DNA of 32,488 nt from a virus (lineage: Duplodnaviria > Heunggongvirae > Uroviricota > Caudoviricetes). The translations under genes were made by a program, and so were the position numbers. Of this stretch, positions 488 through 30,982 are shown in pieces; position 1 is the first letter of the stretch; every line of letters starts with the position of its first letter. The notes beneath the pieces are model-generated. The model saw nothing but the letters and a program-made list of their open reading frames with translations, was not told where the DNA came from and did no database searches. The DNA lies in the IMG/VR virus record IMGVR_UViG_2778261354_000015; one strand, written 5' to 3'.

Positions 488-515
488 TAAAAAATAAGCC
501 CGTGTAAGGGAGATT
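488..515. repeat. attL core (direct repeat copy 1)
   Basis: taaaaaataagcccgtgtaagggagatt is identical to 30955..30982. It matches the 27-bp P2 att core sequence as I remember it. Confidence 0.85.
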
Positions 516-594
516 TAGGGTGTCACCAGTAGGGGCTTTCAACGGTACAATGCGGGTTTGAGCGGCATAAATTACCACTGAAAGCCCTTAAACG

Positions 595-1608
595 TTACTC
601 TACTGTGGACACTGTGTGGACACTCTCGGCCTCAGTACCACCTCTTAGCGGATTAAGAGAAATGGCGTCCTGAAGGTACTCTGGCGCAAAATGAGCGTAA
701 ACCATAGTTTGTTCAATCCGCGTGTGACCTAGTATCCGTTGTAGCGTGATAATACTTCCTCCATTAATCATGAAATGAGTGGCAAAGCTGTGCCTTAGTG
801 CATGTGTGGCTTGCCCCATTGGCAAATCCGGTTTTATTGCTTTCATTGTTCGTCTGAAGCGAGGGTAATCAGCATCAGGGAATAAAAAACCTCGTTTGTT
901 ATCCGCGATCATTTTGGCAACAGCCTCTGAGATCGGGACGGTGCGTGGTTTGTTTGTTTTCGTTTTAACAAACGTGACGCGGTTATGGATGATATTTTCT
1001 GCTTTCAAACGAGCTGCTTCTCCCCAACGTGCTCCAGTACTCAGGCAAAGAATCGCAATCTTTTTATTGTCGCCGTCAAGAGCAGCAAGCAGTAAGGCAA
1101 TTTCTTCCTGCGTGAGATAGCCTGTGTCTGGTTTTTCCTCCTTAAGCCTTTTTGTCCCTCTGATAGGGTGCTCACCAAAGAATAACTCCGCTTCAATCAG
1201 GGCTGTAAACATGCCGCTAATACATGTTAAATCACGATTGATACTCGAAGGTTTAATACCCTGACTTCTTCGGGTGGCGCAGTACTGGCTGATAAGCGAT
1301 TTCGTAATTTGAAATGCGCATGGGTCATTCGTTATTTTTGTGAAGATTTCAATTTTTCCAAGATTAGATTTCCCATGCTCTTCGTGTTTACCCTTTAAAT
1401 CCCACCAGATCTGTGTCAGCTCCGACAGACGTCGCTTGTCTGTTGGTTTTGATAGCCATTCTTTATTGTGGTGGTTGTACAACGTGTATTTCTCGAAAGC
1501 GACAGCTTCGCTTTTCTTATCAAACTTCCTACGGATGCGTTTTCCATTACGTCCAGTAGGGCGGATGTCCACTTCATATCGACCATCATCGAGTTTTTTG
1601 ATTGCCAT
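595..1608 (-). CDS. int: Tyrosine integrase, P2 Int-like (337 aa)
   Basis: Length and sequence match P2 Int. C-terminal catalytic region has the R..H.LRH..Y arrangement (HALRHSFATH ... Y). Sits next to attL. RBS ggaggg upstream. Confidence 0.95.
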   Translation of the reverse strand: MAIKKLDDGRYEVDIRPTGRNGKRIRRKFDKKSEAVAFEKYTLYNHHNKEWLSKPTDKRRLSELTQIWWDLKGKHEEHGKSNLGKIEIFTKITNDPCAFQITKSLISQYCATRRSQGIKPSSINRDLTCISGMFTALIEAELFFGEHPIRGTKRLKEEKPDTGYLTQEEIALLLAALDGDNKKIAILCLSTGARWGEAARLKAENIIHNRVTFVKTKTNKPRTVPISEAVAKMIADNKRGFLFPDADYPRFRRTMKAIKPDLPMGQATHALRHSFATHFMINGGSIITLQRILGHTRIEQTMVYAHFAPEYLQDAISLNPLRGGTEAESVHTVSTVE

Positions 1609-1723
1609 CAGAAAACCCTCCGAGTGGTGTGTTTTTTGGCGACTACTAATCGCTTTTTTCGTGGTGGCTGAAATTTAGCCACCAATAGTAGGCACTTGTG
1701 ATGAATATATTCACGATGAATTG

Positions 1724-2023
1724 TTAACCAGTCTTTTGACCGGAGTGGGGCGACGTTGTTTCGTTTTGCCCAAAGTGTGCGAGAGCGGGCGCAATTTGCC
1801 CGGACTCAGGAGCGATCTGATTGGTCATGAACCATAAAGTGTATTTGGTGAATTGTGGGGTCTGCAGGATGTTCATCATGACATCTGTTGGAGGTGTTGA
1901 ACGACCACTTTCATAGTAACTCAGCGTGCCATACGGAACCCCTGTTAAATCAGCAAGTTGTTGTCTGCTCAAATACTCTGATTTTCGCATTAAGACTATC
2001 TTCTCGCTTATCGTGTTTGACAT
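1724..2023 (-). CDS. C: Immunity repressor C (99 aa)
   Basis: 99-aa ORF divergent from cox. Sequence matches P2 repressor C as remembered. Position between int and cox. Confidence 0.92.
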   Translation of the reverse strand: MSNTISEKIVLMRKSEYLSRQQLADLTGVPYGTLSYYESGRSTPPTDVMMNILQTPQFTKYTLWFMTNQIAPESGQIAPALAHFGQNETTSPHSGQKTG

Positions 2024-2137
2024 GGTGTTTAGATCTCAATAGTATTTAGTTTAGATGTAGATTGTTTAGTGCTTGGATGTGTGCACTAAAAGGCATTATA
2101 AGGCATTAAACGCAATTCATGAGGGCTGGAGGACGAC
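2024..2137. promoter_or_regulatory. Lysis-lysogeny switch region (divergent Pc/Pe promoters with C operators)
   Basis: Intergenic region between divergent C and cox. 8-bp direct repeats gtttagat at 2027..2034 and 2049..2056 (22 bp apart) resemble the P2 O1/O2 operator half-sites. Direct repeat aggcatta at 2091..2098 and 2101..2108. TATAAT-like hexamer on the minus strand around 2095..2100. Confidence 0.6.
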
Positions 2138-2413
2138 ATGAGCAAGCAAGTAACACTCATGACTGATGCGATTCCTTATCAGGAGTTCGCAAAACTAATA
2201 GGAAAATCGACAGGAGCGGTTCGTCGGATGATCGATAAAGGAAAGCTGCCTGTAATTGATATGACCGATCCACAATCAGCTTCAGGTCGTGCAGGTGAAT
2301 ATTGGGTATACCTTCCGGCATGGAATAACGGACTAAAACTGGCTTATGAAAGCCGCCCTAAAGAGATTCGTGACGGCTGGTTGATGTGGTTAGGTCTCGG
2401 TGAACCACGTTAA
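2138..2413 (+). CDS. cox: Cox, excisionase and early-promoter repressor (91 aa)
   Basis: Matches P2 Cox in length and sequence. First gene of the early rightward operon. Confidence 0.93.
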   Translation: MSKQVTLMTDAIPYQEFAKLIGKSTGAVRRMIDKGKLPVIDMTDPQSASGRAGEYWVYLPAWNNGLKLAYESRPKEIRDGWLMWLGLGEPR

Positions 2414-2423
2414 GGAGAACCGT

Positions 2424-2594
2424 ATGAATGAACCTCGTTGTATTGCTCAGTTACTGCGTAACGAAAGCCCCAGGGCGATTGACTTCACCATCACCCACGG
2501 TAAGGGGCGTAAGGGAATCATTATCCGCACCAAAAAACAGAGTCCGTTAAAAAAGGCTCTGACCTTTCTGAAAAGCCGGAGGGTATGGAAATGA
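2424..2594 (+). CDS. P2 orf78-like small early protein
   Basis: Start chosen at the ATG preceded by RBS aaggaga (2412..2418) rather than the upstream ATG at 2400. Conserved P2 position between cox and B. Confidence 0.7.
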   Translation: MNEPRCIAQLLRNESPRAIDFTITHGKGRKGIIIRTKKQSPLKKALTFLKSRRVWK

Positions 2595-3091
2595 CAGTGA
2601 TGACGCTCAATCTCGTTGAAAAACAGCCAGCAACTATGCGCCGGATAATTGGTAAGCATCTGGCCGTCCCTCGCTGGCAGGAGACATGCGATTATTATAA
2701 TCAGATGATGGAACGCGAACGGCTAACGGTATGCTTTCATGCGCAGTTAAAACAGCGTCACGCAACGATGCGTTTTGAAGAAATGAACGACGTCGAACGT
2801 GAACGGCTGGTTTATGCAATTGATGAATTGCGTGGGGCATTCTCAAAACGCCGTCAGGTTGGCGCAAGTGAGTATGCATATATTAGTTTTTTAACAGTCA
2901 GTCAGCGTCGTACTTTATTTATGCATGCCGGATTGACTGAAAAAGAATTCAACCAGCCATACTGGCGAATTAATGAAGAATCATGTTACTGGCGTGATGC
3001 TTTATTCCGTGCATTACGTGAATTATTCAGCCTGTTTGAGTATGCACCGACAATTCTGACGTCGGTAAAACCAGAGCAATATCTGCATTAA
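2591..3091 (+). CDS. B: Replication protein B (DnaB helicase loader-like)
   Basis: Matches P2 gpB. Start set at the ATG at 2591 (RBS ggaggg 2577..2582) rather than 2585, whose RBS spacing is too short. Confidence 0.88.
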   Translation: MTVMTLNLVEKQPATMRRIIGKHLAVPRWQETCDYYNQMMERERLTVCFHAQLKQRHATMRFEEMNDVERERLVYAIDELRGAFSKRRQVGASEYAYISFLTVSQRRTLFMHAGLTEKEFNQPYWRINEESCYWRDALFRALRELFSLFEYAPTILTSVKPEQYLH

Positions 3092-3154
3092 ATAATTAAC
3101 CAGAGTTTTTAACGCACTTAATCGTGCGGGGCTTCTTTTTGCCTGGAGAAAGTC

Positions 3155-3379
3155 ATGCATACAGTTTCTGAAAACAAGTGCGGTAAATACGCATTACTGC
3201 TGCAACAGGCCAGAGCCGAAGCACAGGCCGACGCAGCGACACGCTTTTCTTCTCATCTTGACGCCATGATTCGCCATATCACAAAGGCGGAGTTATCCCG
3301 CGTGGAGATAGTCGAGCTGCTCAGTCAGGAGTCGGAAAAATTTCACAATATCGGATTGTCTCGCGGGGAGGTGCTTTGA
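3155..3379 (+). CDS. P2 orf80-like hypothetical protein
   Basis: Conserved small ORF between B and A in P2 early-operon synteny. Confidence 0.7.
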
Positions 3380-3681
3380 TGTCCTGTTCTCATTCAGTTG
3401 TATTACTGAATAACGCCTTAAAAATCGCCGTTATGAAAAATGGTGATTTGTCTCTTATTCAACTTGGTATTGATAAAGAGAAGCGCGAAATAACTGAATC
3501 TGTTATCGCGATTTATCAGAGTGAATTAAACCTCCTGTCTGATGTGGTCAATTTACTTGTTAAACGCGCTGTATTCCACAAGCAAATTTCCTCAGTGGAT
3601 GAACTGACAAAATTAACGACAGAACTCGCCAGTTATTGCGCTGATGAATTTAAGAAGCTGAACGACAAAAGGAGCTGGTAA
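3376..3681 (+). CDS. P2 orf81-like hypothetical protein
   Basis: Start is translationally coupled to the upstream ORF stop. P2 synteny. Confidence 0.7.
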
Positions 3682-3905
3682 TGCCGGACAACGTAGATTT
3701 TATTCAGGAACAACAGGCTGAATTACTGGAGCGCCAGATTAACGCGGCAAGGGTAAAACATTGCGGTGCTTCTGCGCTGGTTTGCGAAGAGTGTGACGCG
3801 CCAATACCTGCTGCCCGTCGTGCGGCTTATCCGTCAGCCACGCGATGTGTTTCCTGTCAGTCAGTCTTTGAAGCAAAAAACAAACATTACCGGAGAACGG
3901 CATGA
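3681..3905 (+). CDS. TraR/DksA-family C4 zinc-finger protein (P2 orf82-like)
   Basis: CEEC ... CVSC four-cysteine motif near the C-terminus, typical of the phage TraR/DksA zinc-finger family. P2 synteny. Confidence 0.8.
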   Translation: MPDNVDFIQEQQAELLERQINAARVKHCGASALVCEECDAPIPAARRAAYPSATRCVSCQSVFEAKNKHYRRTA

Positions 3906-4177
3906 GTATTCGTATTGAAATTGGCGAACGTTATGTCGTTACCAGTGACAGCTTTCAGTTTATTCTCCACGAGAAAAAGAGAGCTGAAAGCGGTAAAAAC
4001 GCCGGTCAGGAATGGCTGGCGGTGGTTGGTTATTACCCGAAATTAAGCCAGCTCGTTTCCGGCCTGATGCATCACGATATTCTGACCGGAAGCGCAAAGT
4101 CTTTTGCTGATTTAAACGCGCAGGTTGAGCAACTCAGCAAGCGTTGTTCAGAGGCTTTTGGCTCATATGGCCGTTAA
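3902..4177 (+). CDS. P2 orf83-like hypothetical protein
   Basis: Conserved ORF that overlaps the start of A. P2 synteny. Confidence 0.7.
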   Translation: MSIRIEIGERYVVTSDSFQFILHEKKRAESGKNAGQEWLAVVGYYPKLSQLVSGLMHHDILTGSAKSFADLNAQVEQLSKRCSEAFGSYGR

Positions 4178-6455
4178 AGCCTCCGGGCGTTTTGTCCCTC
4201 CGTCAGCATTTGCCGCAGGCACCGGTAAGACGTTTACCGGTGCTTATGCATGGAACGCGCCACGCGAGGCTGTCGGGCGCGAAAGACCCCTTACACGTGA
4301 CGAGATGCGTCAGGTGCAAGGTGTTTTATCCACGATTAACCGCCTGCCTTACTTTTTGCGCTCGCTGTTTACTTCACGCTATGACTACATCCGGCGCAAT
4401 AAAAGCCCGGTGCACGGGTTTTATTTCCTCACATCCACTTTTCAGCGTCGTTTATGGCCGCGCATTGAGCGTGTGAATCAGCGCCATGAAATGAACACCG
4501 ACGCGTCGTTGCTGTTTCTGGCAGAGCGTGACCACTATGCGCGCCTGCCGGGAATGAATGACAAGGAGCTGAAAAAGTTTGCCGCCCGTATTTCATCGCA
4601 GCTTTTCATGATGTATGAGGAACTCAGCGATGCCTGGGTGGATGCGCATGGCGAAAAAGAATCGCTGTTTACGGATGAGGCGCAGGTTCACCTCTATGGT
4701 CATGTTGCTGGCGCTGCACGTGCTTTCAATATTTCCCCTCTCTACTGGAAAAAATACCGTAAAGGACAGATGACCACGAGGCAGGCATATTCTGCCATTG
4801 CCCGTCTGTTTAACGATGAGTGGTGGACTCATCAGCTTAAAGGCCAGCGTATGCGCTGGCATGAGGCGTTACTGATTGCTGTCGGGGAGGTGAATAAAGA
4901 CCGTTCTCCTTATGCCAGTAAACATGCCATTCGTGATGTGCGTGCACGCCGCCAGGCAAATCTGGAATTTCTTAAATCGTGTGACCTTGAAAACAGGGAA
5001 ACCGGCGAGCGCATCGACCTTATCAGTAAGGTGATGGGCAGTATTTCTAATCCTGAAATTCGCCGGATGGAGCTGATGAACACCATTGCCGGTATTGAGC
5101 GTTACGCCGCCGCAGAGGGTGATGTGGGGATGTTTATCACGCTGACCACGCCGTCAAAGTATCACCCGACACGTCAGGTCGGAAAAGGCGAAAGTAAAAC
5201 CGTCCAGCTTAATCACGGCTGGAATGATGAGGCATTTAATCCAAAGGATGCGCAGCGTTATCTCTGCCGTATCTGGAGCCTGATGCGCACGGCATTCAAG
5301 GATAATGATTTACAGGTCTACGGTTTGCGTGTCGTCGAGCCACACCACGACGGAACGCCGCACTGGCATATGATGCTTTTTTGTAATCCACGCCAGCGTA
5401 ACCAGATTATCGAAATCATGCGTCGCTATGCGCTCAAAGAGGATGGCGACGAAAGAGGAGCCGCGCGAAACCGTTTTCAGGCGAAACACCTTAACCGGGG
5501 CGGTGCTGCGGGGTATATCGCGAAATACATCTCAAAAAATATCGACGGCTATGCACTGGATGGTCAGCTCGATAATGATACCGGCAGACCGCTGAAAGAC
5601 ACTGCCGCGGCTGTTACCGCATGGGCGTCAACGTGGCGCATCCCGCAATTTAAAACGGTTGGTCTGCCGACAATGGGGGCTTACCGTGAACTACGCAAAT
5701 TGCCTCGCGGCGTCAGCATTGCTGATGAGTTTGACGAGCGCGTCGAGGCTGCACGCGCCGCCGCAGACAGTGGTGATTTTGCGTTGTATATCAGCGCGCA
5801 GGGTGGGGCAAATGTCCCGCGCGATTGTCAGACTGTCAGGGTCGCCCGTAGCCCGTCGGATGACGTTAACGAGTATGAGGAAGAAGTCGAGAGAGTGGTC
5901 GGCATTTACGCGCCGCATCTCGGCGCGCGTCATATTCATATCACCAGAACGACGGACTGGCGCATTGTGCCGAAAGTTCCGGTCGTTGAGCCTTTGACTT
6001 TAAAAAGCGGCATCGCCGCGCCTCGGAGTCCTGTCAATAACTGTGGAACGCTCACCGGTGGTGATACTTCGTTACCGGCTCCCACACCTTCTGAGCACGC
6101 CGCAGCAGTGCTTAATCTGGTAGATGACGGTGTTATCGAATGGAATGACCCGGAGGTCGTGAGGGCGCTCAGAGGTGCATTAAAACACGGCCTGAGAAGA
6201 CCAAACCGTCAGCAAAGAAACGGAAGCCCGTTAAAACCGCATGAAATAGCGCCATCGGCCAGACTGACCCGGTCGGAACGAATGCAAATTACCCGTATCC
6301 GCGTTGACCTTGCTCAGAACGGTATCAGGCCTCAGCGATGGGAGATTGAGGCGCTGGCGCGTGGGGCAACCGTGACATACGACGGACAAAAATTCACATA
6401 TCCAGATGCGGATGAGTGGTCGGGGTTTTCAACCACAATAGAGTGGAATCAATGA
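4167..6455 (+). CDS. A: Replication initiation protein A (rolling-circle nickase)
   Basis: About 760 aa, matching P2 gpA. Start set at MAVKASG (4167) rather than the ORF-track start at 4125. Contains the conserved HWHMMLF and GYIAKYISKN motifs of rolling-circle initiators. Confidence 0.93.
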   Translation: MAVKASGRFVPPSAFAAGTGKTFTGAYAWNAPREAVGRERPLTRDEMRQVQGVLSTINRLPYFLRSLFTSRYDYIRRNKSPVHGFYFLTSTFQRRLWPRIERVNQRHEMNTDASLLFLAERDHYARLPGMNDKELKKFAARISSQLFMMYEELSDAWVDAHGEKESLFTDEAQVHLYGHVAGAARAFNISPLYWKKYRKGQMTTRQAYSAIARLFNDEWWTHQLKGQRMRWHEALLIAVGEVNKDRSPYASKHAIRDVRARRQANLEFLKSCDLENRETGERIDLISKVMGSISNPEIRRMELMNTIAGIERYAAAEGDVGMFITLTTPSKYHPTRQVGKGESKTVQLNHGWNDEAFNPKDAQRYLCRIWSLMRTAFKDNDLQVYGLRVVEPHHDGTPHWHMMLFCNPRQRNQIIEIMRRYALKEDGDERGAARNRFQAKHLNRGGAAGYIAKYISKNIDGYALDGQLDNDTGRPLKDTAAAVTAWASTWRIPQFKTVGLPTMGAYRELRKLPRGVSIADEFDERVEAARAAADSGDFALYISAQGGANVPRDCQTVRVARSPSDDVNEYEEEVERVVGIYAPHLGARHIHITRTTDWRIVPKVPVVEPLTLKSGIAAPRSPVNNCGTLTGGDTSLPAPTPSEHAAAVLNLVDDGVIEWNDPEVVRALRGALKHGLRRPNRQQRNGSPLKPHEIAPSARLTRSERMQITRIRVDLAQNGIRPQRWEIEALARGATVTYDGQKFTYPDADEWSGFSTTIEWNQ

Positions 6456-6520
6456 CAAAGGTAAATCACATTAAAAACGTATCTGCTTACTTTAAGAGAT
6501 GATTTTCTCTTTAAAGCATT

Positions 6521-6549
6521 GTATGGTTGCTGGCGATATGGCATATAAT
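6521..6549 (+). promoter_or_regulatory. Candidate sigma70 promoter for cargo gene 1
   Basis: Perfect TATAAT at 6544..6549, with a weak -35 (gtatgg, 6521..6526) at 17-bp spacing. Lies in the AT-rich intergenic region upstream of 6661. Confidence 0.35.
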
Positions 6550-6660
6550 GTAGCAAAAACATGAGCTTGGTAAGAAACGATTCTGTCATAAGGCATAGTT
6601 CTGCCACTCGCTCGGTATTGATGCCATGGACATGGACTCTATTTAAATCAAGGTGCATAT

Positions 6661-7620
6661 ATGAAAATATTTATTAGTTGGTCAGGTTCGGACAGCCTAG
6701 AGATAGCGAAAGTATTACGGGATTGGATCCCTAATGTTATTCAAGTAGCTGAGCCGTACGTATCAGCAGAGGATATTGATAAAGGTACTCGCTGGGCGAC
6801 CGATATATCAAAGGAACTTGATGACTCTTCTTATGGCATTATTTGTCTTACAAAGAGTAATATTAATGCTCCTTGGATAAATTTTGAAGCAGGTGCTTTA
6901 GGTAAAAAAGTTGACAAAAGCCGAGTTAGCCCTTTCTTGTTTAAAATTAAACCATCTGAAGTAACAGGTCCAATTTTACAATTTCAGTCTACTCGCTCGG
7001 ATGATAAAAACGATATTTTGAAGTTGATGTTATCCATAAATAAACAAGCTGGATTTTTGTCTGAAGATCGCTTAACAAAAGCTTTCGAGCAGTGGTGGCC
7101 AAGTTTAGAACATGAGTTAGATAGCATTCCCGATATTAGTCCTGTAGATAAAGATTCAGCAAAACAAGCAAAAGGTAGTTCAAGTTCTGAAATACAAAAC
7201 CTTTCTAAAATTGTTGAAAACTTGCTGGATATTAGCCGAACGAATCACCAGTTATTACGTGATCCAGCATCGCTTTTGCCAGAAGAATATGTTAGTAAAA
7301 TAATAAATAGAAGTGAGCGTAAAGAAAGTACCTTAAGAACCGTAGTCTCTGATTTATCAGTTGCATATCGTTCAGCTATTCGTCTAAAAAGAAGCCTCAT
7401 GAGACATGGTCTTGATGAAGTCTCGATGGACGAATACATTGATTCACTAAATAAAATAATAGATGATTTTGCTAAACCAATCAATTACTTAGAGCGTCGC
7501 TATGGGAAGGGTAGTGCTCATATGTCAGATGCTTTACTCCATCGTTCACTTAGACCACGATCCAGAAACTTAATTGATATGATGGTTGAGGAAGATACAG
7601 AACAGGATGAAATTGTATGA
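6661..7620 (+). CDS. TIR-like domain protein with uncharacterised C-terminal domain (cargo at the P2 tin/old slot); candidate anti-phage defence protein
   Basis: 319 aa. N-terminus MKIFISWSGSD ... ICLTKSNINAPWINFEAG gives a TIR-type beta-A strand and a W-x3-E motif (E76, codon 6886..6888) like the catalytic Glu of TIR NADases. The gene looks AT-rich compared with the backbone. It occupies the slot where P2 carries orf91/tin/old. Confidence 0.65.
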   Translation: MKIFISWSGSDSLEIAKVLRDWIPNVIQVAEPYVSAEDIDKGTRWATDISKELDDSSYGIICLTKSNINAPWINFEAGALGKKVDKSRVSPFLFKIKPSEVTGPILQFQSTRSDDKNDILKLMLSINKQAGFLSEDRLTKAFEQWWPSLEHELDSIPDISPVDKDSAKQAKGSSSSEIQNLSKIVENLLDISRTNHQLLRDPASLLPEEYVSKIINRSERKESTLRTVVSDLSVAYRSAIRLKRSLMRHGLDEVSMDEYIDSLNKIIDDFAKPINYLERRYGKGSAHMSDALLHRSLRPRSRNLIDMMVEEDTEQDEIV

Positions 7621-7864
7621 TCGATTACGATTAACTACAAACAATCTGATATTATAAAATTTATCAACGCTACAGCCGCCATACTACAGCGGCTGTATAG
7701 GGCTCATAATAGGTATTTTATTGCTATCCCTCAAATCCTAAAAATTGCGGATGCTGCATGAATTCGCATGCTTGATTAACTCTAAATAATCCCCTCACTT
7801 ACGGCTTTTGCGCTGGATTCAACTCTGAATGCACCTGTATTAAAACCGACCCATGAAGCGGGCG

Positions 7865-7883
7865 GGCGAGGCGGGGAAAGCAC
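7865..7883. other. cos site (19-nt cohesive end sequence)
   Basis: ggcgaggcggggaaagcac matches the P2 cohesive-end sequence as I remember it. It sits in the expected place, between the right-end cargo and Q. Confidence 0.65.
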
Positions 7884-11888: not shown

Positions 11889-11946
11889 CCGGCGTCAGTC
11901 AGTCCGGGAAAACCTTCACGATTAACCCTTAATTTCAGGAAAAACT

Positions 11947-13020: not shown

Positions 13021-13023
13021 CCG

Positions 13024-17228: not shown

Positions 17229-17294
17229 TTGTGCCATTCCCGACACCTCATCGTCACATTGCCGCCGGTATGACCCGGCGGCATCCTTCCCGTT

Positions 17295-18274: not shown

Positions 18275-18278
18275 AACC

Positions 18279-22369: not shown

Positions 22370-22555
22370 GTTGTATGAACTCTGGTGTGAGCTTACATAT
22401 CTATGGCACAGAGTAAAGCCTAATCTGACAGTCCGCTCTGTGCCAGGAGCGGAAGTTGCCAAGAGAACTCTTGCAAAGGTATGATAACGTAGGTGCTAAA
22501 TAATCATGAACCATAATAAATTAAAGGTTTTTAAGTTAACTCTATGGCGTTTCTT

Positions 22556-22584
22556 TTGCATGATGATTTTTTATTTATTATATA
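22556..22584 (+). promoter_or_regulatory. Candidate sigma70 promoter of the cargo 2 operon
   Basis: -35 TTGCAT (22556..22561), 17-bp AT-rich spacer, -10 TATATA (22579..22584). RBS agagga at 22639..22644, 6 nt before the ATG at 22651. Confidence 0.5.
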
Positions 22585-22650
22585 AAGCTTAAATATACAT
22601 AATATTTAGCTTCATTTTTTTAGGTATTTTAAAGATTTAGAGGAATGTGA

Positions 22651-23586
22651 ATGGCTACTTATGCTTCTTATTTACCAGAATCACAAATTATCACTTTGTG
22701 CAAGGATTTCCCAGCGTTTACTGATCCTGAAAAATTAGATGGATTCATTAATCCAGAACAGTTTGGCGTGTTTTTTCATGAGTGGATTCATTTTCTTCAC
22801 AATATTTCCACAATTAATGGGTTTTCTATTTTTTGCACGCAAAACATCCTGTGGTCTAATTTTCGCTGGGCAATGGACAATCAGGATGTATGTCTTGGTT
22901 CAAATGACATGGATCCAGCACATATCGAATCAAACAAAAATTTTCTCAGTTACATTCGTTCCAATAGGAGTCTGCATAAATGTAACTTACCTTATTATGT
23001 AAAAGTAAACGACTTGTATTTTGAGGATGCAATAATCCATGACATGGAGGTTGCTGACGGTAGTGTTACATGTACATCATTAATAAAGTGTAGAATTTCT
23101 CATTCTGAAAACAAATACGATCTAGATTTAGGCGTGCTTGAAATACTTGAATCCGCAGCTTTTATGCTTGAATGTAAGTGTATTAATGCGATGAATGGCT
23201 TCCCTCAAGAGGCACCCTTTTATCCGTATCATACTATCAAAGGCTTAGCAGCGAAAATTGCTCCGTCATTAAATGATGAAGATATTATTTGTTGTATGTT
23301 AGCTTCTTTGCAATCTAATAACCCTCCCCAAGTATTATTCAATCTACTACATAAATGTGAATTATTACATTCTGATTGTAGGTATGAACATCTAGTGGCG
23401 GAGGTGAAAAAACAATTAAGCGAACAAGATCAAATAATAAGCGAGTCACTTAATCAAATAATTCAAATGATTCCTGTTGATGAACCGATGGGAAACTTTA
23501 TCAAGCTTACTCTTAACAGAATAAGTAACAATTTGAACTATAGAAAGCAAAAACCGTTTTTTGAGTTAGATATAATAAAAAAATAG
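22651..23586 (+). CDS. Uncharacterised cargo protein (311 aa) with HExxH motif; candidate defence component A
   Basis: Long ORF in an AT-rich island with a strong RBS. HEWIH at residues 43..47 (22777..22791) sits in a hydrophobic context like zincin metallopeptidase active sites. No similarity to any P2 backbone protein that I recognise. Confidence 0.6.
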   Translation: MATYASYLPESQIITLCKDFPAFTDPEKLDGFINPEQFGVFFHEWIHFLHNISTINGFSIFCTQNILWSNFRWAMDNQDVCLGSNDMDPAHIESNKNFLSYIRSNRSLHKCNLPYYVKVNDLYFEDAIIHDMEVADGSVTCTSLIKCRISHSENKYDLDLGVLEILESAAFMLECKCINAMNGFPQEAPFYPYHTIKGLAAKIAPSLNDEDIICCMLASLQSNNPPQVLFNLLHKCELLHSDCRYEHLVAEVKKQLSEQDQIISESLNQIIQMIPVDEPMGNFIKLTLNRISNNLNYRKQKPFFELDIIKK

Positions 23587-23603
23587 CAGAAAAAACTGAG
23601 TTT

Positions 23604-23993
23604 ATGAATGAAGTAATACAGAAATTCGGTGGTTGCACTATCATCCAGGTAAGACATGGAGATGATAATGAACCACAGCGTGATATTATGTATGACTTTT
23701 GCTTACCTGAAAATAATGATTCAATTTTATTTGGTTCGAAAATGCTACGCGCTTGTTTTCACTTTATATTTATTCACTTTAAACTTTCTGGTGAAATCAT
23801 GAAGACAGAAGAATTAAATATTTCGCCGCGTAATAAATGCCCATTTTATACTGTTTGCTGTGCATCAATTCGAGCTAATAATAGTAATATCTGCGCTGAA
23901 TCCCCTTGGAAATCAATGTCTATTGATGACAACAAAGGTTGTTATTATGCAGCAGCGATTAAAGCTACTAACCCACCAGTTTTGCCGGATTAA
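23604..23993 (+). CDS. Small cysteine-rich cargo protein (129 aa); candidate defence component B
   Basis: ORF 17 nt downstream of the previous gene on the same strand. Eight Cys residues, including a CC pair. The RBS is weak, so the start is uncertain. Same AT-rich island. Confidence 0.45.
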   Translation: MNEVIQKFGGCTIIQVRHGDDNEPQRDIMYDFCLPENNDSILFGSKMLRACFHFIFIHFKLSGEIMKTEELNISPRNKCPFYTVCCASIRANNSNICAESPWKSMSIDDNKGCYYAAAIKATNPPVLPD

Positions 23994-24127
23994 GAATAGT
24001 GTTCTTTCTGATAAATATAAAATATTTAAGGTCAGGTCTGCTTATCGCTCAAAGCAGACTGTCAGATTTGATAACGTTTGGGCTATGTAAACCGTCAGTT
24101 GGAAAATGAGTGAGTGCAAGTCAGGAC

Positions 24128-24251: not shown

Positions 24252-25442
24252 ATGAGTGACTATCATCACGGCGTGCAGGTGCTGGAGATTAACGACGGCA
24301 CACGCGTCATTTCCACCGTATCCACTGCCATTGTCGGCATGGTCTGCACGGCCAGCGATGCGGATGCGGAAACCTTCCCCCTCAATAAACCTGTGCTGAT
24401 TACCAATGTGCAGAGTGCAATTGCAAAGGCCGGTAAAAAAGGCACGCTGGCGGCATCGTTGCAGGCCATCGCTGACCAGTCAAAACCGGTCACCGTTGTC
24501 GTGCGCGTGGAAGACGGCACCGGTGATGACGAGGAAACGAAACTCGCGCAGACCGTTTCCAATATTATCGGCACCACTGACGAAAACGGTCAGTACACCG
24601 GACTGAAAGCCCTGCTGGCGGCGGAGTCGGTAACCGGTGTTAAACCGCGTATTCTTGGTGTGCCGGGGCTGGATACCAAAGAGGTGGCTGTTGCACTGGC
24701 ATCAGTCTGTCAGAAGCTGCGCGCTTTCGGATATATCAGCGCATGGGGCTGTAAGACCATTTCCGAGGTGAAAGCCTACCGCCAGAATTTCAGCCAGCGT
24801 GAGCTGATGGTCATCTGGCCGGATTTCCTCGCATGGGATACGGTCACCAGTACCACCGCCACCGCGCATGCCACCGCCCGTGCGCTGGGTCTGCGCGCTA
24901 AAATCGACCAGGAGCAGGGCTGGCATAAAACGCTGTCCAACGTTGGGGTAAACGGTGTTACCGGCATCAGCGCATCTGTATTCTGGGATTTGCAGGAGTC
25001 CGGCACCGATGCTGACCTGCTTAACGAGTCAGGCGTCACTACGCTGATTCGCCGTGACGGTTTCCGCTTCTGGGGTAACCGTACCTGCTCTGATGACCCG
25101 CTGTTCCTCTTTGAAAACTACACCCGCACCGCGCAGGTGCTGGCCGACACGATGGCTGAGGCGCACATGTGGGCGGTGGACAAGCCCATCACCGCAACGC
25201 TGATTCGCGACATCGTTGACGGCATCAATGCCAAATTCCGTGAGCTGAAAACAAACGGCTATATCGTGGATGCGACCTGCTGGTTCAGCGAAGAATCCAA
25301 CGATGCGGAAACCCTCAAGGCCGGAAAACTGTATATCGACTACGACTATACCCCGGTGCCTCCTCTCGAAAACCTGACCCTGCGCCAGCGTATTACCGAT
25401 AAATACCTGGCAAATCTGGTCACCTCGGTTAACAGCAATTAA
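24252..25442 (+). CDS. FI: Tail sheath protein
   Basis: 396 aa, matches P2 gpFI. Confidence 0.95.
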   Translation: MSDYHHGVQVLEINDGTRVISTVSTAIVGMVCTASDADAETFPLNKPVLITNVQSAIAKAGKKGTLAASLQAIADQSKPVTVVVRVEDGTGDDEETKLAQTVSNIIGTTDENGQYTGLKALLAAESVTGVKPRILGVPGLDTKEVAVALASVCQKLRAFGYISAWGCKTISEVKAYRQNFSQRELMVIWPDFLAWDTVTSTTATAHATARALGLRAKIDQEQGWHKTLSNVGVNGVTGISASVFWDLQESGTDADLLNESGVTTLIRRDGFRFWGNRTCSDDPLFLFENYTRTAQVLADTMAEAHMWAVDKPITATLIRDIVDGINAKFRELKTNGYIVDATCWFSEESNDAETLKAGKLYIDYDYTPVPPLENLTLRQRITDKYLANLVTSVNSN

Positions 25443-25454
25443 GGAGCCTGACCG

Positions 25455-25973
25455 ATGGCAATGCCGCGCAAACTCAAGTTAATGAACGTCTTTCTGAACG
25501 GCTACAGCTATCAGGGCGTTGCAAAGTCCGTCACGCTGCCAAAACTGACCCGTAAGCTCGAAAACTATCGCGGTGCGGGGATGAACGGCAGCGCACCGGT
25601 AGACCTCGGCCTTGATGACGATGCACTGTCAATGGAGTGGTCGCTCGGGGGCTTCCCGGATTCGGTTATCTGGGAGCTTTACGCCGCAACCGGTGTGGAT
25701 GCTGTGCCGATTCGTTTTGCAGGCTCTTACCAGCGCGACGATACCGGCGAAACGGTGGCCGTCGAGGTGGTCATGCGTGGACGTCAGAAAGAAATCGACA
25801 CCGGCGAGGGGAAACAGGGAGAAGACACCGAGTCGAAAATCTCCGTGGTCTGCACCTATTTCCGGCTGACGATGGACGGTAAGGAGCTGGTCGAAATCGA
25901 CACCATCAACATGATTGAGAAGGTGAACGGCGTCGACCGGCTGGAGCAACACCGCCGCAATATCGGCCTGTGA
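25455..25973 (+). CDS. FII: Tail tube protein
   Basis: 172 aa, matches P2 gpFII. Confidence 0.95.
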   Translation: MAMPRKLKLMNVFLNGYSYQGVAKSVTLPKLTRKLENYRGAGMNGSAPVDLGLDDDALSMEWSLGGFPDSVIWELYAATGVDAVPIRFAGSYQRDDTGETVAVEVVMRGRQKEIDTGEGKQGEDTESKISVVCTYFRLTMDGKELVEIDTINMIEKVNGVDRLEQHRRNIGL

Positions 25974-26029
25974 TTTTCATCCGGTCAGCCAGGCTGACCG
26001 GTTACCCCCTATTCAGAAGTGAGAAAACC

Positions 26030-26305
26030 ATGAACAAAGAAAATGTCATTACCCTGGACAATCCGGTCAAACGTGGTGAGCAGGTTATCGAACAGGTCAC
26101 GCTGATGAAACCTAACGCCGGGACGCTGCGCGGTGTCAGTCTGGCTGCGGTTGCAAACTCCGAAGTCGATGCACTGATTAAAGTGCTGCCGCGCATGACG
26201 GCACCGATGCTGACCGAGCAGGAAGTCGCCGCGCTGGAACTGCCTGACCTTGTGGCGCTGGCCGGTAAGGTGGTCGGTTTTTTGTCGCCGAACTCGGTGC
26301 AGTGA
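26030..26305 (+). CDS. E: Tail assembly chaperone E
   Basis: 91 aa from MNKENVITLDNP, matching P2 gpE. The ORF-track start at 25970 is an over-extension. Confidence 0.9.
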   Translation: MNKENVITLDNPVKRGEQVIEQVTLMKPNAGTLRGVSLAAVANSEVDALIKVLPRMTAPMLTEQEVAALELPDLVALAGKVVGFLSPNSVQ

Positions 26306-26457
26306 CGTTCCCGAAAAATCTCTCGGTCGATGACCTGATGGCGGATGTGGCAGTGATATTTCACTGGCCGCCATCAGAACTGTATCCCATGAGCCTGACC
26401 GAACTCATCACATGGCGCGAAAAGGCGCTCCGGCGAAGCGGAAACACGAATGAGTAA
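26030..26457 (+). CDS. Tail assembly chaperone E+E' (programmed -1 frameshift product)
   Basis: Slippery run T TTT TTG at 26278..26284 near the 3' end of E. The -1 frame stays open for 59 codons (FFVAELGAVTFPKNLSVDDLMADVAVIFHWPPSELYPMSLTELITWREKALRRSGNTNE) to a TAA at 26455..26457, overlapping the T start. This is the conserved arrangement in P2-like and lambda-like tail chaperones. Confidence 0.8.
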
Positions 26458-28897
26458 CAATGTAAAATTACAGGTATTGCTCAGGGCTGTTGACCAGGCA
26501 TCCCGCCCGTTTAAATCCATCCGTACAGCGAGTAAGTCGCTGTCGGGGGATATCCGGGAAACACAAAAATCACTGCGCGAGCTGAACGGTCACGCATCCC
26601 GTATTGAGGGATTCCGCAAGACCAGTGCACAGCTCGCCGTGACTGGTCATGCACTTGAAAAGGCACGGCAGGAAGCCGAAGCCCTTGCCACACAGTTTAA
26701 AAACACCGAACGTCCGACCCGTGCTCAGGCGAAAGTGCTGGAATCAGCAAAGCGAGCGGCGGAAGACTTACAGGCGAAATATAACCGCCTGACGGATTCC
26801 GTTAAACGCCAGCAGCGGGAACTGGCCGCTGTGGGAATTAATACCCGCAATCTTGCACATGATGAGCAGGGGCTGAAAAACCGTATCAGTGAAACCACCG
26901 CACAGCTTAACCGTCAGCGCGACGCACTGGCGCGTGTCAGTGCACAACAGGCAAAACTTAACGCAGTCAAACAGCGTTATCAGGCCGGAAAAGAACTGGC
27001 AGGAAATATGGCCTCAGTGGGCGCTGCCGGTGTGGGGATTGCTGCTGCGGGAACGATGGCCGGAGTTAAGCTGCTGATGCCCGGTTATGAGTTTGCGCAG
27101 AAAAACTCAGAATTGCAGGCTGTGCTCGGTGTGGCAAAAGACTCCGCCGAAATGGCTGCACTACGCAAGCAGGCGCGCCAGCTCGGTGACAATACCGCCG
27201 CCTCAGCGGATGATGCGGCCGGTGCGCAGATTATCATTGCGAAAGCGGGTGGAGATGTTGATGCCATTCAGGCGGCAACGCCGGTCACGCTGAACATGGC
27301 GCTGGCGAACCGTCGCACGATGGAAGAAAACGCCGCCCTGCTGATGGGGATGAAATCTGCCTTTCAGCTTTCAAACGATAAGGTCGCTCATATCGGGGAT
27401 GTTCTCTCCATGACGATGAACAAAACCGCCGCTGATTTTGACGGCATGAGCGATGCGCTGACCTATGCCGCACCAGTGGCAAAAAATGCCGGTGTCAGCA
27501 TTGAAGAAACTGCCGCAATGGTCGGGGCGCTGCATGATGCAAAAATCACAGGCTCAATGGCGGGGACGGGAAGCCGTGCCGTGTTAAGTCGCCTGCAGGC
27601 ACCGACTGGAAAAGCATGGGATGCACTCAAAGAGCTTGGCGTGAAAACCTCAGACAGTAAGGGAAACACCCGACCAGTATTTACCATTCTGAAAGAAATG
27701 CAGGCCAGCTTTGAGAAAAACCGGCTCGGTACTGCCCAGCAGGCCGAATACATGAAAACCATTTTCGGGGAGGAGGCCAGCTCAGCCGCCGCTGTGCTGA
27801 TGACTGCCGCGTCAACCGGAAAGCTGGACAAACTGACCGCTGCGTTTAAAGCCTCAGACGGGAAGACCGCAGAGCTGGTAAATATCATGCAGGACAACCT
27901 CGGCGGTGACTTTAAGGAGTTTCAGTCCGCTTATGAGGCGGTGGGGACAGACCTGTTTGACCAGCAGGAAGGCGCACTGCGTAAGCTCACGCAGACGGCC
28001 ACAAAGTATGTGTTAAAACTCGACGGCTGGATCCAGAAAAACAAATCACTGGCGTCAACCATCGGCCTCATTGTCGGTGGTGCACTGGCGCTGACTGCTG
28101 TCATCGGTGCCATTGGCCTCGTAGCCTGGCCGGTTATCACTGGCATCAATGCCATCATCGCGGCAGCAGGCGCAATGGGGGCAATCTTCACGACGGTTGG
28201 CAGTGCTGTTATGACGGCCATCGGGGCGATTAGCTGGCCGGTTGTGGCCGTGGTGGCCGCCATTGTCGCCGGGGCGTTACTTATCCATAAATACTGGGAG
28301 CCTGTCAGCGCATTCTTTGGCGGTGTGGTGGAAGGGCTGAAAGCGGCATTTGCGCCGGTGGGAGAACTGTTCACGCCACTGAAGCCGGTGTTTGACTGGC
28401 TGGGCGAAAAGTTACAGGCCGCGTGGCAGTGGTTTAAAAACCTGATTGCCCCGGTCAAAGCCACACAGGACACCCTGAACCGTTGCCGTGACACGGGCGT
28501 CATGTTCGGGCAGGCACTGGCTGACGCGCTGATGCTGCCGCTTAATGCGTTCAACAAACTGCGCAACGGTATTGACTGGGTACTGGAAAAACTCGGTGTT
28601 ATCAACAAAGAGTCAGACACACTTGACCAGACCGCAGCCAGAACTCATGCCGCCACGTATGGCACCGGTGGTTATATTCCGGCGACCAGCTCTTATGCAG
28701 GCTATCAGGCTTATCAGCCGGTTACGGCACCGGCTGGCCGCTCTTATGTGGACCAGAGTAAAAACGAATATCACATCAACCTGACGGGCGGTACTGCGCC
28801 GGGAACACAGCCTGACCGCCAGTTACAGGATGCGCTCGAAAAATACGAGCGGGATAAACGTGCGCGCGCCCGTGCCAGCATGATGCATGACGGTTAA
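26450..28897 (+). CDS. T: Tail tape measure protein
   Basis: 815 aa with coiled-coil N-terminus and Gly/Ala-rich hydrophobic segments. P2 gpT position and length. Confidence 0.95.
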   Translation: MSNNVKLQVLLRAVDQASRPFKSIRTASKSLSGDIRETQKSLRELNGHASRIEGFRKTSAQLAVTGHALEKARQEAEALATQFKNTERPTRAQAKVLESAKRAAEDLQAKYNRLTDSVKRQQRELAAVGINTRNLAHDEQGLKNRISETTAQLNRQRDALARVSAQQAKLNAVKQRYQAGKELAGNMASVGAAGVGIAAAGTMAGVKLLMPGYEFAQKNSELQAVLGVAKDSAEMAALRKQARQLGDNTAASADDAAGAQIIIAKAGGDVDAIQAATPVTLNMALANRRTMEENAALLMGMKSAFQLSNDKVAHIGDVLSMTMNKTAADFDGMSDALTYAAPVAKNAGVSIEETAAMVGALHDAKITGSMAGTGSRAVLSRLQAPTGKAWDALKELGVKTSDSKGNTRPVFTILKEMQASFEKNRLGTAQQAEYMKTIFGEEASSAAAVLMTAASTGKLDKLTAAFKASDGKTAELVNIMQDNLGGDFKEFQSAYEAVGTDLFDQQEGALRKLTQTATKYVLKLDGWIQKNKSLASTIGLIVGGALALTAVIGAIGLVAWPVITGINAIIAAAGAMGAIFTTVGSAVMTAIGAISWPVVAVVAAIVAGALLIHKYWEPVSAFFGGVVEGLKAAFAPVGELFTPLKPVFDWLGEKLQAAWQWFKNLIAPVKATQDTLNRCRDTGVMFGQALADALMLPLNAFNKLRNGIDWVLEKLGVINKESDTLDQTAARTHAATYGTGGYIPATSSYAGYQAYQPVTAPAGRSYVDQSKNEYHINLTGGTAPGTQPDRQLQDALEKYERDKRARARASMMHDG

Positions 28898-28911
28898 GGA
28901 GGTGACGAAAA

Positions 28912-29391
28912 ATGATGCTCGCGTTAGGTATGTTTGTTTTTATGCGCCAGACGCTGCCACACCAGACCATGCAGCGTGAATCAGATTATCGCTGGCCGTC
29001 AAATTCCCGTATCGGTAAACGGGATGCCTTTCAGTTTCTCGGTGTGGGTGAGGAAAACATGACGCTTGCCGGTGTGCTTTATCCCGAACTGACCGGCGGC
29101 AAGCTGACGATGACCACGCTCAGACTGATGGCAGAGGAAGGCCGGGCGTGGCCGTTGCTGGATGGCACCGGCATGATTTACGGCATGTATGTCATCAGCA
29201 GGGTGAGTGAAACAGGGAGTATTTTCTTTGCAGACGGCACACCCCGGAAAATTGATTTTACGCTGTCGCTCACCCGCGTTGATGAATCACTGGCCGCGCT
29301 TTATGGCGATATCGGTAAACAGGCGGAATCGCTCATCGGTAAGGCTGGCAGTATGGCGACCAGATTCACGGGTATGACGGGGGCGGGATAA
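28912..29391 (+). CDS. U: Tail protein U
   Basis: 159 aa, matches P2 gpU. Confidence 0.93.
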   Translation: MMLALGMFVFMRQTLPHQTMQRESDYRWPSNSRIGKRDAFQFLGVGEENMTLAGVLYPELTGGKLTMTTLRLMAEEGRAWPLLDGTGMIYGMYVISRVSETGSIFFADGTPRKIDFTLSLTRVDESLAALYGDIGKQAESLIGKAGSMATRFTGMTGAG

Positions 29392-30554
29392 TGCTGGATG
29401 CGCTGACATTTGATGCAGGCAGTACGCTGACGCCGGATTACATGCTGATGCTCGACAGCAGGGATATTACCGGCAATATCAGTGACCGTCTGATGAGCAT
29501 GACCCTGACGGATAACCGGGGCTTTGAGGCTGACCAGCTTGATATTGAACTGAACGATGCCGACGGGCAGGTCGGGCTGCCGGTTCGTGGCGCTGTCCTG
29601 ACGGTGTATATCGGCTGGAAAGGTTTTGCCCTGGTATGCAAAGGGAAATTTACCGTTGATGAGGTTGAACACCGGGGCGCACCGGATGTGGTCACCATCC
29701 GCGCCCGGAGTGCAGATTTCCGCGGGACGCTCAATTCCCGCCGGGAAGGCTCCTGGCATGACACCACGCTCGGTGCGATTGTTGAGGCGATAGCCTCCCG
29801 TAACAGGCTGGAGGCCAGTGTCGCTCCGTCACTGGCCGGAATTAAAATCCCGCACATCGACCAGTCGCAGGAGTCTGATGCGAAATTCCTGACCCGTCTT
29901 GCAGAACGCAACGGCGGTGAGGTGTCGGTAAAAATGGGAAAACTGTTGTTTCTCAAAGCGGGGCAGGGGGTGACGGCCAGCGGTAAAAAAATCCCGCAGG
30001 TCACCATCACCCGCAGCGACGGCGACCGTCATCATTTTGCGATTGCTGACCGTGGAGCCTATACCGGCGTTACGGCAAAGTGGTTACACACCAAAGACCC
30101 GAAGCCGCAAAAGCAGAAGGTAAAACTGAAACGCAAAAAGAAAGAGAAACACCTGCGCGCACTGGAGCACCCGAAAGCGAAACCGGTCACGCAGAAGAAA
30201 GAGCCAAAAGTACCGGAAGCGCGCGAAGGTGAATACATGGCCGGTGAGGCTGACAACGTTTTTGCCCTGACCACGGTATATGCCACGAAAGCACAGGCCA
30301 TGCGCGCCGCTCAGGCGAAGTGGGATAAACTGCAACGGGGTGTTGCGGAGTTCTCCATCAGCCTGGCTACTGGTCGGGCAGATATTTACACGGAAACACC
30401 GGTTAAAGTGTCAGGCTTTAAGCGCGTCATAGACGAGCAGGACTGGACCATCACTAAGGTGACACATTGTCTCAATAATAGCGGCTTCACGACGTCCTTG
30501 GAGCTTGAGGTAAGGCTTTCTGATGTGGAGTACGAAACAGAAGATGATGAGTGA
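29391..30554 (+). CDS. D: Tail protein D (baseplate hub / late control D)
   Basis: 387 aa, matches P2 gpD. Confidence 0.93.
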   Translation: MLDALTFDAGSTLTPDYMLMLDSRDITGNISDRLMSMTLTDNRGFEADQLDIELNDADGQVGLPVRGAVLTVYIGWKGFALVCKGKFTVDEVEHRGAPDVVTIRARSADFRGTLNSRREGSWHDTTLGAIVEAIASRNRLEASVAPSLAGIKIPHIDQSQESDAKFLTRLAERNGGEVSVKMGKLLFLKAGQGVTASGKKIPQVTITRSDGDRHHFAIADRGAYTGVTAKWLHTKDPKPQKQKVKLKRKKKEKHLRALEHPKAKPVTQKKEPKVPEAREGEYMAGEADNVFALTTVYATKAQAMRAAQAKWDKLQRGVAEFSISLATGRADIYTETPVKVSGFKRVIDEQDWTITKVTHCLNNSGFTTSLELEVRLSDVEYETEDDE

Positions 30555-30635
30555 TGCGGTTTATTTATCTATTTGTTTTATAAGGGTAAATTAACTAAAA
30601 TGGCACTATCAACAAAACCGGAAGAGGTGCTCGCG

Positions 30636-30854
30636 ATGTTTCATTGTCCTTTATGCCAGCATGCCGCACATGCGCGTACAAGTCGCTATATCACTGACAC
30701 GACAAAAGAGCGTTATCACCAGTGCCAGAACGTGAATTGCAGCGCCACGTTCATCACTTATGAGTCGGTACAGCGATACATCGTAAAGCCGGGAGAAGTC
30801 CACGCCGTAAGGCCGCACCCGTTACCGTCAGGGCAGCAAATTATGTGGATGTAA
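30636..30854 (+). CDS. ogr: Late gene transcriptional activator Ogr (C4 zinc finger, 72 aa)
   Basis: Starts MFHCPLCQHAAHARTSRYI with CxxC ... C..NC cysteines, matching P2 Ogr. The ORF-track start at 30573 is an over-extension. Confidence 0.92.
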   Translation: MFHCPLCQHAAHARTSRYITDTTKERYHQCQNVNCSATFITYESVQRYIVKPGEVHAVRPHPLPSGQQIMWM

Positions 30855-30866
30855 TTACAAACAGAA

Positions 30867-30891
30867 AGCCCCTCAGTCGAGGGGCTTTTTT
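30867..30891 (+). terminator. Rho-independent terminator downstream of ogr
   Basis: Stem agcccctc (30867..30874), loop agtc, stem gaggggct (30879..30886), followed by tttttt. Confidence 0.8.
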
Positions 30892-30954
30892 GTCGATGTG
30901 GTCAATGTGTGGACGTGACCAGAAATAAATCCTTTTATTTCATTGAATTACGCG

Positions 30955-30982
30955 TAAAAAATAAGCCCGTGTAAGGGAGATT
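30955..30982. repeat. attR core (direct repeat copy 2)
   Basis: Identical to 488..515. Overlaps the 3' terminator region of cyaR on the minus strand. Confidence 0.85.

Follow-up and report, generated by a model that had tools for sequence, protein, structure and literature searches.

The DNA analysed here, a stretch of 32,488 nucleotides hereafter called the window, very probably contains a complete P2-type (Peduovirus) E. coli prophage that should be viable and in which the accessory slots carry exchanged cargo. The element extends from 489 to 30982 of the window and has a size of 30,467 bp. Three moron slots are recognised in P2-like phages (PMC6823313); in this prophage all three, as well as the receptor-binding end of the tail fibre, are unlike those of P2. 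Gene order, the C repressor, Cox, Ogr, the operators O1 and O2, cos and the 27-nt att core are the same as in P2 (NC_001895, genus Peduovirus). The prophage lacks the P2 genes orf91, tin, old, orf30 and fun(Z), and other cargo is found instead.

Alignment to P2 NC_001895, by blastn for DNA and by tblastn for proteins, gave four collinear blocks with a DNA identity of about 97% that is lost only in discrete blocks. These are 430-6447 (P2 24293-30314, 97.5% nt), 7865-17230 (P2 1-9369, 97.3%), 17295-20446 (P2 10308-13459, 96.9%) and 24037-30982 (P2 17433-24382, 96.4%). Within them the identity per 200-bp window ranges from 91% to 100%, partial windows at block edges excepted. The DNA difference of about 3% is found across the backbone except in int-C-cox, where identity reaches about 99.6%. 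The collinear P2 order comprises the int-C-cox switch, the A/B replication genes, the QP/ONML head genes, lysis, the V-G and F-D tail operons and ogr. Each of the 37 backbone proteins of P2 is encoded at full length in this order, uninterrupted by stops or frameshifts; tblastn gave aa identities of 91.7-100%, and the sole gap in end-to-end protein alignments is a 2-aa in-frame gap in M. By tblastn, the integrase gene int (595..1608, minus strand) encodes a protein with 99.7% aa identity to P2 Int (337/337). It is followed, beyond the switch, by the intact early operon with cox, orf78, B, orf80-83 and the replication endonuclease gene A (2138..6455, plus strand, 94-100% aa). The genes for the portal Q (98.5%) and the large terminase P (99.8%) lie at 8054..10860 on the minus strand. 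On the plus strand are found the intact operon with O, N, M, L, X, Y, K, lysA, lysB, lysC, R and S (11034..17228, 91.7-100%), the baseplate genes V, W, J and I (17295..19710, 97-100%), the intact operon with FI, FII, E/E+E', T, U and D (24252..30554, 98-100%), in which the -1 slippery site of E+E' is conserved, and the late-gene activator gene ogr (30636..30854, 100%). The near-identical, intact backbone proposed by an earlier sequence-only reading is thus borne out. Neither of the observations that this reading had named as contradicting it, evenly spread divergence and broken backbone genes, was encountered. Its description of a clean natural swap within the same phage goes too far, given the difference of about 3% in backbone DNA, the 74% aa identity of G and the presence of another H/G allele. 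Identity multiplied by aligned fraction is about 0.83 of the prophage genome and about 0.75 of that of P2. By ICTV convention, members of the same species share at least 95% nucleotide identity genome-wide, and by this rule the prophage would not belong to the same species as P2.

The C immunity repressor (1724..2023, minus strand) has 100% aa identity to P2 C over 99/99 residues in tblastn. A position-by-position comparison of the Pe/Pc switch region (2017..2120) revealed no difference from P2 in O1 (2027-2034), O2 (2049-2056) or any of the Pe and Pc hexamers, and Cox is identical as well. Because C and the operators match exactly, the immunity of the prophage is assigned to the P2 type, as the sequence-only reading had suggested. 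The 19-nt cohesive-end site cos (7865..7883) is also an exact match to that of P2.

The ends of the element could be placed precisely. Identical 27-nt att cores found by exact match search, attL (AAAAAATAAGCCCGTGTAAGGGAGATT, 489..515) and attR (30956..30982), delimit the prophage on both sides and correspond to the P2 attP core. The insertion point is the 3' end of the host sRNA gene cyaR (RyeE; 30959..31044, minus strand; Rfam RF00112, 100.7 bits, E=3e-19), which coincides with the att core and is restored by the phage copy; no tRNA gene takes part in the integration. The flanking host genes, identified by megablast, are yegR on the left (1..318, plus strand; compared with E. coli genomes and the empty site) and trhP (yegQ) on the right (31127..32488, minus strand). 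In silico excision of 516-30982 yields a gapless empty site as in E. coli 2022H047. The prophage entered between yegR and trhP by Int-mediated recombination, for which the 27-nt core at the cyaR 3' end served as the site. P-arm-like DNA at 430-488 was considered as a remnant of a second prophage, a reading that was dropped because nearly all E. coli have the same DNA at their empty site.

Whole-element alignment had been expected to break at three sites only. All three breaks lie near the predicted positions: 6448-7835 against 6456-7860, 20447-21783 (beyond which G continues at 78% to 22453) against 20640-21838, and 22454-24036 against 22370-24251. However, there is a fourth break at 17231-17294, which corresponds to orf30. 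The tin/old (TO) and Z/fun slots do carry foreign AT-rich cargo, with GC contents of 0.369 and 0.328 versus 0.545 for the backbone. The proposal that only these two variable slots had been replaced was too narrow, as the third recognised moron slot also differs, being empty, and orf91 is missing too. The differences from P2 may have arisen by the replacement of cassettes when P2-like genomes resident in one host recombined within the conserved DNA on either side of each slot. The swap as such is an ordinary finding, since the exchange of cargo and defence genes on the conserved P2 backbone has been documented on a large scale (PMC9122126, PMC13586616). Catalogues of thousands of prophages already list swapped cargo for the TO, orf30 and Z/fun slots, and this element adds little to them.

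In the orf30 slot, 64 bp (17231..17294, from the blastn gap and the sequence) stand in place of 938 bp of P2 (9370-10307), and the slot is likewise empty in phage 9W. The tail fibre gene H (19721..21838, plus strand, 705 aa) was assigned by tblastn, blastn to 9W, a phage search and PHROG tail fibre families. Its residues 1-251 have 95% identity to P2, and its distal part is unrelated to that of P2 H, as had been anticipated, with 95-97% nt identity to phages 9W and P22H4. The adjacent tail fibre assembly gene G (21842..22369, plus strand; tblastn, blastn and PHROG) has only 74% aa identity to P2 G, with 78% at the nucleotide level reaching 22453. By these alignments the distal part of H together with G is the already known 9W/P22H4 allele, which predicts a receptor range different from that of P2. 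Phage 9W and Peduovirus P22H4 also give the best DNA match overall, with 97.2-97.3% identity over 86% of the query (window 488-24000), yet their TO-slot and Z/fun-slot cargo is unlike that of the prophage. H contains internal repeats of about 132 bp each at 20239-20596; the 9W protein has 748 aa versus 705 aa here, a difference in repeat copy number, and a 300-bp segment of H (window 21238-21538) fails to align with 9W.

The TO slot (6448..7835) has no blastn alignment to P2 and contains, in the place of orf91, tin and old, a gene for a solo TIR-domain protein of 319 aa (6661..7620, plus strand). This protein matches the PADLOC profile PDLC03016 'TIR-TM' (E=1e-117, 283/293 profile positions) and Pfam TIR_2 (34.8 bits versus a cutoff of 28 bits). 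It resembles the TIR protein of the P2_AC1 defence system Rst 2TM-1TM-TIR (PADLOC 'TIR-TM'), which occupies the same gpA-gpQ slot (Rousset et al. 2022, PMC9122126). The two proteins have 78% aa identity, being nearly identical over the first 230 residues and diverging over the C-terminal 80. AC1 has in addition two transmembrane (TM) genes, gp04 and gp03, whereas the prophage has neither: tblastn with both partners detected no homologue in the whole window, and the 205 bp between gpA and the TIR gene contain no TM-like ORF. Neither W72 nor E76 varies among 22 homologues, and E76 is the putative catalytic Glu. By analogy, the TIR protein could act alone as a phage-triggered NAD+-consuming or signalling abortive-infection protein. 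Around the TO slot only short boundary repeats at chance level were found. Promoter and terminator scans of the TO and Z/fun slots gave nothing above shuffled expectation, except the backbone terminator at 24128-24148. That the tin/old cargo is a lone component of a validated three-gene system had been overlooked by the sequence-only reading.

The Z/fun moron cassette (22454..24036, 1583 bp), delimited by blastn and prophage comparison, is bordered exactly at the ends of P2 homology by inverted repeats (22422..22453 and 24037..24068) with 32-nt arms that are 78% complementary. Comparable inverted repeats are annotated in AJ512685, where the P2-EC67 Z-region cassette also lies between G and FI with imperfect inverted repeats at the backbone edges. 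The cargo gene of the prophage is a different one, of the phrog_15354 family, and is frameshifted. Compared with other E. coli P2-like prophages, the cassette is 99.8-99.9% identical versus merely 95-98.7% for its flanks. Its two ORFs, which had been read as a pair of genes, are by alignment to L002 one gene of 447 aa split by an A8-to-A7 slip. The N-terminal fragment (22651..23586, plus strand, 311 codons) contains HEWIHFLHN and is terminated by a TAG that arises from the frameshift at the A7 homopolymer (23577..23583, plus strand; A8 in the intact allele). The C-terminal fragment (23604..23993, plus strand, 129 codons) contains four invariant Cys and belongs to phrog_36473. Of 13 complete E. 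coli genomes, 11 have the gene as a single 447-aa CDS, and members of the family are single chains of about 440-500 aa. Owing to the A8-to-A7 contraction, the 447-aa protein is cut short at residue 311 and is most likely inactive in this prophage.

Three other explanations for these features have to be weighed. The prophage could be defective (cryptic) instead of viable. Most P2-like prophages contain at least one pseudogene (PMC13586616), and one cargo gene is indeed frameshifted here. However, no essential P2 gene is shortened or interrupted by a stop, the operators, cos, the two att cores and the E+E' slippery site are all intact, and the genome size, 30.5 kb, falls in the range seen in viable relatives, for example 9W and L-413C. 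We thus regard a cryptic element as very unlikely and retain the reading of a complete, probably viable prophage. The A7 run could instead be a sequencing or assembly artefact at the homopolymer, in which case the prophage would really encode the intact 447-aa protein. A7 versus A8 is the sole difference, the source is a draft assembly (GCA_002461255.1, contig NJZR01000016.1), and the intact allele is about 60 times commoner (936 contigs versus 15 with the 129-aa fragment). Against this, short-read assemblies rarely miscall eight-base runs, and the 129-aa downstream ORF is also present in finished genomes, MS1679 and GPEC1054, among those 15 contigs. The 15 contigs and the existence of a PHROG family for the fragment itself show that the A7 allele exists in nature. 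An artefact is accordingly improbable, and a genuinely frameshifted gene remains our preferred reading.

The lone TIR gene, finally, could be a decaying remnant of the three-gene 2TM-1TM-TIR system, functionless without its membrane effectors. Its homologue follows two TM genes not only in AC1 but also in 14 complete E. coli genomes, and the TM-TM-TIR order recurs in distant Lysinibacillus and Pyrinomonadales loci. The system validated against lambda, LF82_P8 and P2 comprised all three AC1 genes (PMC9122126), and the homology to AC1 extends no further than about 113 bp ahead of the TIR start codon. On the other hand, the ORF is intact and keeps all 73 family-invariant residues, and defence pseudogenes are reported to be rare in P2 (PMC13586616). 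The closest relative (86%) is solo in Klebsiella, where P2-like prophages on 24 contigs carry it in the gpA-gpQ slot, and a relative at 62% is solo in Serratia chromosomes. The intact ORF and the recurrence of solo relatives argue that the lone TIR gene is kept by selection, so a remnant seems rather unlikely, although less so than the two preceding alternatives. Since this TIR protein had been known solely as part of a validated system of three genes, its solo recurrence makes the need for membrane partners testable. A scan of genome contigs returned only distant TIR relatives (34-52%, other phyla), in mixed neighbourhoods with and without TM genes.

Of the features described here, the gene family in the Z/fun slot is the only lead worth pursuing. 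The prophage documents a cargo gene of a P2 hotspot caught as a frameshifted allele, at a place where surveys find defence pseudogenes to be rare. The family counts about 850 representatives at 50% identity. Its motif HExxHxxHN (H43-E44-x-x-H47 with H50 and N51) is invariant in 26 sequences, together with three invariant Glu and the four C-terminal Cys. Pfam, PADLOC (PADLOC-DB v2) and NCBIfam assigned no family to the fragments or to the full-length protein, and a literature search by accession retrieved no paper. The HExxH motif of zincins is present, but no similarity in sequence or fold to a known peptidase family was found. A profile search against the PDB returned only chance-level matches to cGAS/DncV (E about 0.8). 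The confident AF2 model of the 447-aa protein is one compact fold (pLDDT 91.6, pTM 0.92) with no match among solved or viral structures. Since Fun(Z), the known occupant of this slot, excludes T5, an unannotated and widespread HExxH family with no structural neighbour is a reasonable candidate for a new exclusion gene, and we infer that the 447-aa protein may be a metal-dependent hydrolase serving phage exclusion. Going further, we tentatively propose that phrog_15354 (intact form WP_000257039.1) could be a new family that confers phage exclusion by one gene alone, its product being a metal-dependent enzyme whose fold is new to solved structures, in which the A8 tract would be a slippage on/off switch and this prophage the off state; as a whole this proposal is speculative. 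The evidence from defence contexts is anecdotal: family members stand alone in mobile, variable loci, which besides the P2 Z/fun hotspot are ICE cargo beside an ApeA-like HEPN protein and a site beside an RT-ATPase system.

The window is a piece of E. coli chromosome with a P2-type prophage inserted between yegR (1-318, + strand) and cyaR/trhP. The right flank comprises the host cyaR sRNA gene (30959-31044, - strand; Rfam RF00112, 100.7 bits) and trhP/yegQ (31127-32488, - strand). The 27-nt att core AAAAAATAAGCCCGTGTAAGGGAGATT, identical to the P2 attP core, is present at 489-515 and at 30956-30982. Once 516-30982 is deleted in silico, what is left aligns without gaps to the unoccupied yegR-trhP site of E. 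coli 2022H047, with substitutions at 20 of 2021 bp, which puts the length of the phage genome at 30,467 bp. Judged by the att cores and the excision junction, the element bounds of 488-30982 proposed in the sequence-only reading were essentially exact. The core corresponds to the 3' end of cyaR, which terminates inside the attR copy. The prophage is integrated into this 3' end, the gene being restored by the phage's own core copy; attL thus retains a second, incomplete cyaR 3' end. Contig NJZR01000016.1 of GCA_002461255.1 is 100% identical to the window over the 10,960 bp compared. Host DNA directly left of attL (430-488) aligns with the P-arm/IHF region of P2 (P2 24293-24355), the alignment containing one deletion of 8 nt and one insertion of 4 nt. 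It belongs to a left flank (1-492) found in nearly all E. coli, and an empty site still carries it. An ancient P2-like att arm at the yegR-trhP locus may have left this stretch behind.

Among phage records, a megablast search gave P2 and its near relatives. Alignment to P2 (NC_001895) resulted in four collinear blocks of 96.4-97.5% identity, within which 200-bp windows range from 91% to 100%, except for partial windows at block edges. All 37 P2 backbone proteins are present, in order, at full length and without stops, with 91.7-100% amino acid identity and a 2-aa in-frame gap in M as the only gap. The near-identical P2 backbone that had been claimed is thus real: divergence is not spread evenly along the element and no backbone gene is disrupted. 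Ten proteins match P2 at every residue (C, Cox, Orf78, Orf82, O, Y, K, W, FII and Ogr). In the DNA, nothing separates the two phages in operators O1 and O2, in the Pe and Pc hexamers or in the 19-nt cos site, and the slippery site for E+E' has been kept. The identity of C and of both operators agrees with the proposed P2 immunity type. The int-C-cox-orf78 region (600-2600) shares about 99.6% of its DNA with P2 (5 mismatches per 1000 bp), versus about 97% for the other backbone. This suggests that the integration/immunity module was exchanged with a P2-proper lineage more recently than the remainder.

P2-like phages have three recognised moron regions, TO (tin/old), orf30 and Z/fun (PMC6823313), and all three differ from P2 here. 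In the TO slot the alignment breaks at 6448-7835 (predicted, 6456-7860), and orf91, tin and old of P2 are missing. The Z/fun slot breaks at 22454-24036 (predicted, 22370-24251) and lacks fun(Z). Both carry foreign cargo that is AT-rich, as had been noticed (GC 0.369 for TO and 0.328 for Z/fun versus 0.545 for the backbone). The sequence-only reading was right on these two slots and on the distal tail fibre, but it listed only three blocks and missed the orf30 slot, where 64 bp (17231-17294) replace 938 bp of P2 carrying orf30. This empty slot is shared with phage 9W. As expected, the tail fibre is unlike that of P2: H diverges over 20447-21783 and is followed, up to 22453, by a G with 78% nucleotide and 74% amino acid identity. 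Distal H and G match phages 9W and P22H4 at 95-97% and are already known rather than new. H is 705 aa long, compared with 748 aa in 9W and 669 aa in P2. Tandem-like repeats of about 132 bp lie within H (20239-20596), their copy number varying among this prophage, 9W and P2. A 300-bp segment of distal H (21238-21538) aligns with neither P2 nor 9W, while both its sides match 9W at about 95%; this looks like one more mosaic patch in the part of H that binds the receptor.

In an analysis of 18,150 loci, P2 backbones were conserved while the cargo between gpA and gpQ varied greatly (PMC9122126). What had been presented as a natural swap experiment therefore follows a pattern already published. Nor is the element a clean swap on the same phage: it is not isogenic with P2, since the backbone diverges by about 3%, H and G are of another allele and the third slot is empty, and in addition one cargo gene is broken and one defence system is incomplete. 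Overall, the initial observation is confirmed and its interpretation is borne out only in part. What remains of note is the solo-TIR question and an uncharacterised 447-aa family.

The only gene of the TO slot (6661-7620) encodes a 319-aa protein with a Pfam TIR_2 domain that matches the PADLOC model TIR-TM (E=1e-117). Its identity to the P2_AC1 TIR protein is 78%, the first 230 residues being nearly identical. In AC1 two small transmembrane (TM) genes precede the TIR gene, and the three genes cloned together confer protection against lambda, LF82_P8 and P2 (PMC9122126). Here the TIR gene stands alone, AC1 homology starting only about 113 bp upstream of its start codon. The whole window encodes neither of the two AC1 TM proteins, and membership in the 2TM-1TM-TIR system is therefore, by its definition, incomplete. 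A dead remnant would be one reading of this arrangement. All 73 family-invariant residues are kept, W72 and E76 among them. The closest relative (86% identity) likewise stands by itself, in the slot between gpA and gpQ of Klebsiella P2-like prophages (24 contigs), and so does a 62% relative in the chromosomes of Serratia. Among distant relatives, arrangements with and without TM genes both occur. We infer that the gene is probably a functional stand-alone TIR, a dead remnant being less likely.

Imperfect 32-nt inverted repeats (22422-22453 and 24037-24068) mark the exact limits of the Z/fun cassette. The P2-EC67 Z-region record has annotated inverted repeats like these; no comparable repeats were found bounding the TO slot. 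Compared with two E. coli P2-like prophage loci (L002 and L003), the cassette is 99.8-99.9% identical versus 95-98.7% for the adjoining backbone, the signature of a recent cassette exchange, presumably by recombination in the conserved flanks. Backbone DNA just right of the cassette, upstream of the FI promoter region, holds a strong terminator-like hairpin (24128-24148, + strand; 9 pairs, 7 of them GC, then a T-run).

In the ORF list the cargo appears as two ORFs of 311 and 129 aa. The same DNA is a single 447-aa CDS (WP_000257039.1) in 11 of the 13 complete E. coli genomes that carry the cassette at 99.6% identity or better. In the window and in two chicken isolates, A7 replaces A8 at 23577-23583, which creates a TAG stop at 23584. 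Homologues are all single chains of about 440-500 aa (27 clusters by word search, 849 representatives by profile search), and the intact protein is recorded on 936 contigs versus 15 for the 129-aa fragment. We therefore read the A7 form in the window as a derived frameshift; an error of assembly is less likely. PHROGs contains both forms (phrog_15354 and phrog_36473), each listed as unknown function. The situation is reversed in L002, a related prophage in E. coli 2013C-4830: its 447-aa gene is intact, whereas H is frameshifted and T has an internal stop, both being annotated as pseudogenes (L002 positions 62-2379 and 6992 onward).

Homologues of the 447-aa protein are solitary genes in variable or mobile surroundings. 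In Enterobacter the neighbours are an RT and AAA-ATPase pair and IS elements, in Sodalis the gene lies within T4SS-element cargo with an ApeA-like HEPN protein at its side, and in Aeromonas it follows the trp operon. Our best guess, from motif and context only, is a metal-dependent exclusion enzyme. In the Enterobacter contigs the homologue is immediately preceded by a conserved gene of 202-218 aa (L007/L008 5034-5690; L009 69-725; L010 1620-2276), which has no Pfam hit and is missing from the P2 cassette. This gene could be either a facultative partner or cargo with no link to the homologue.
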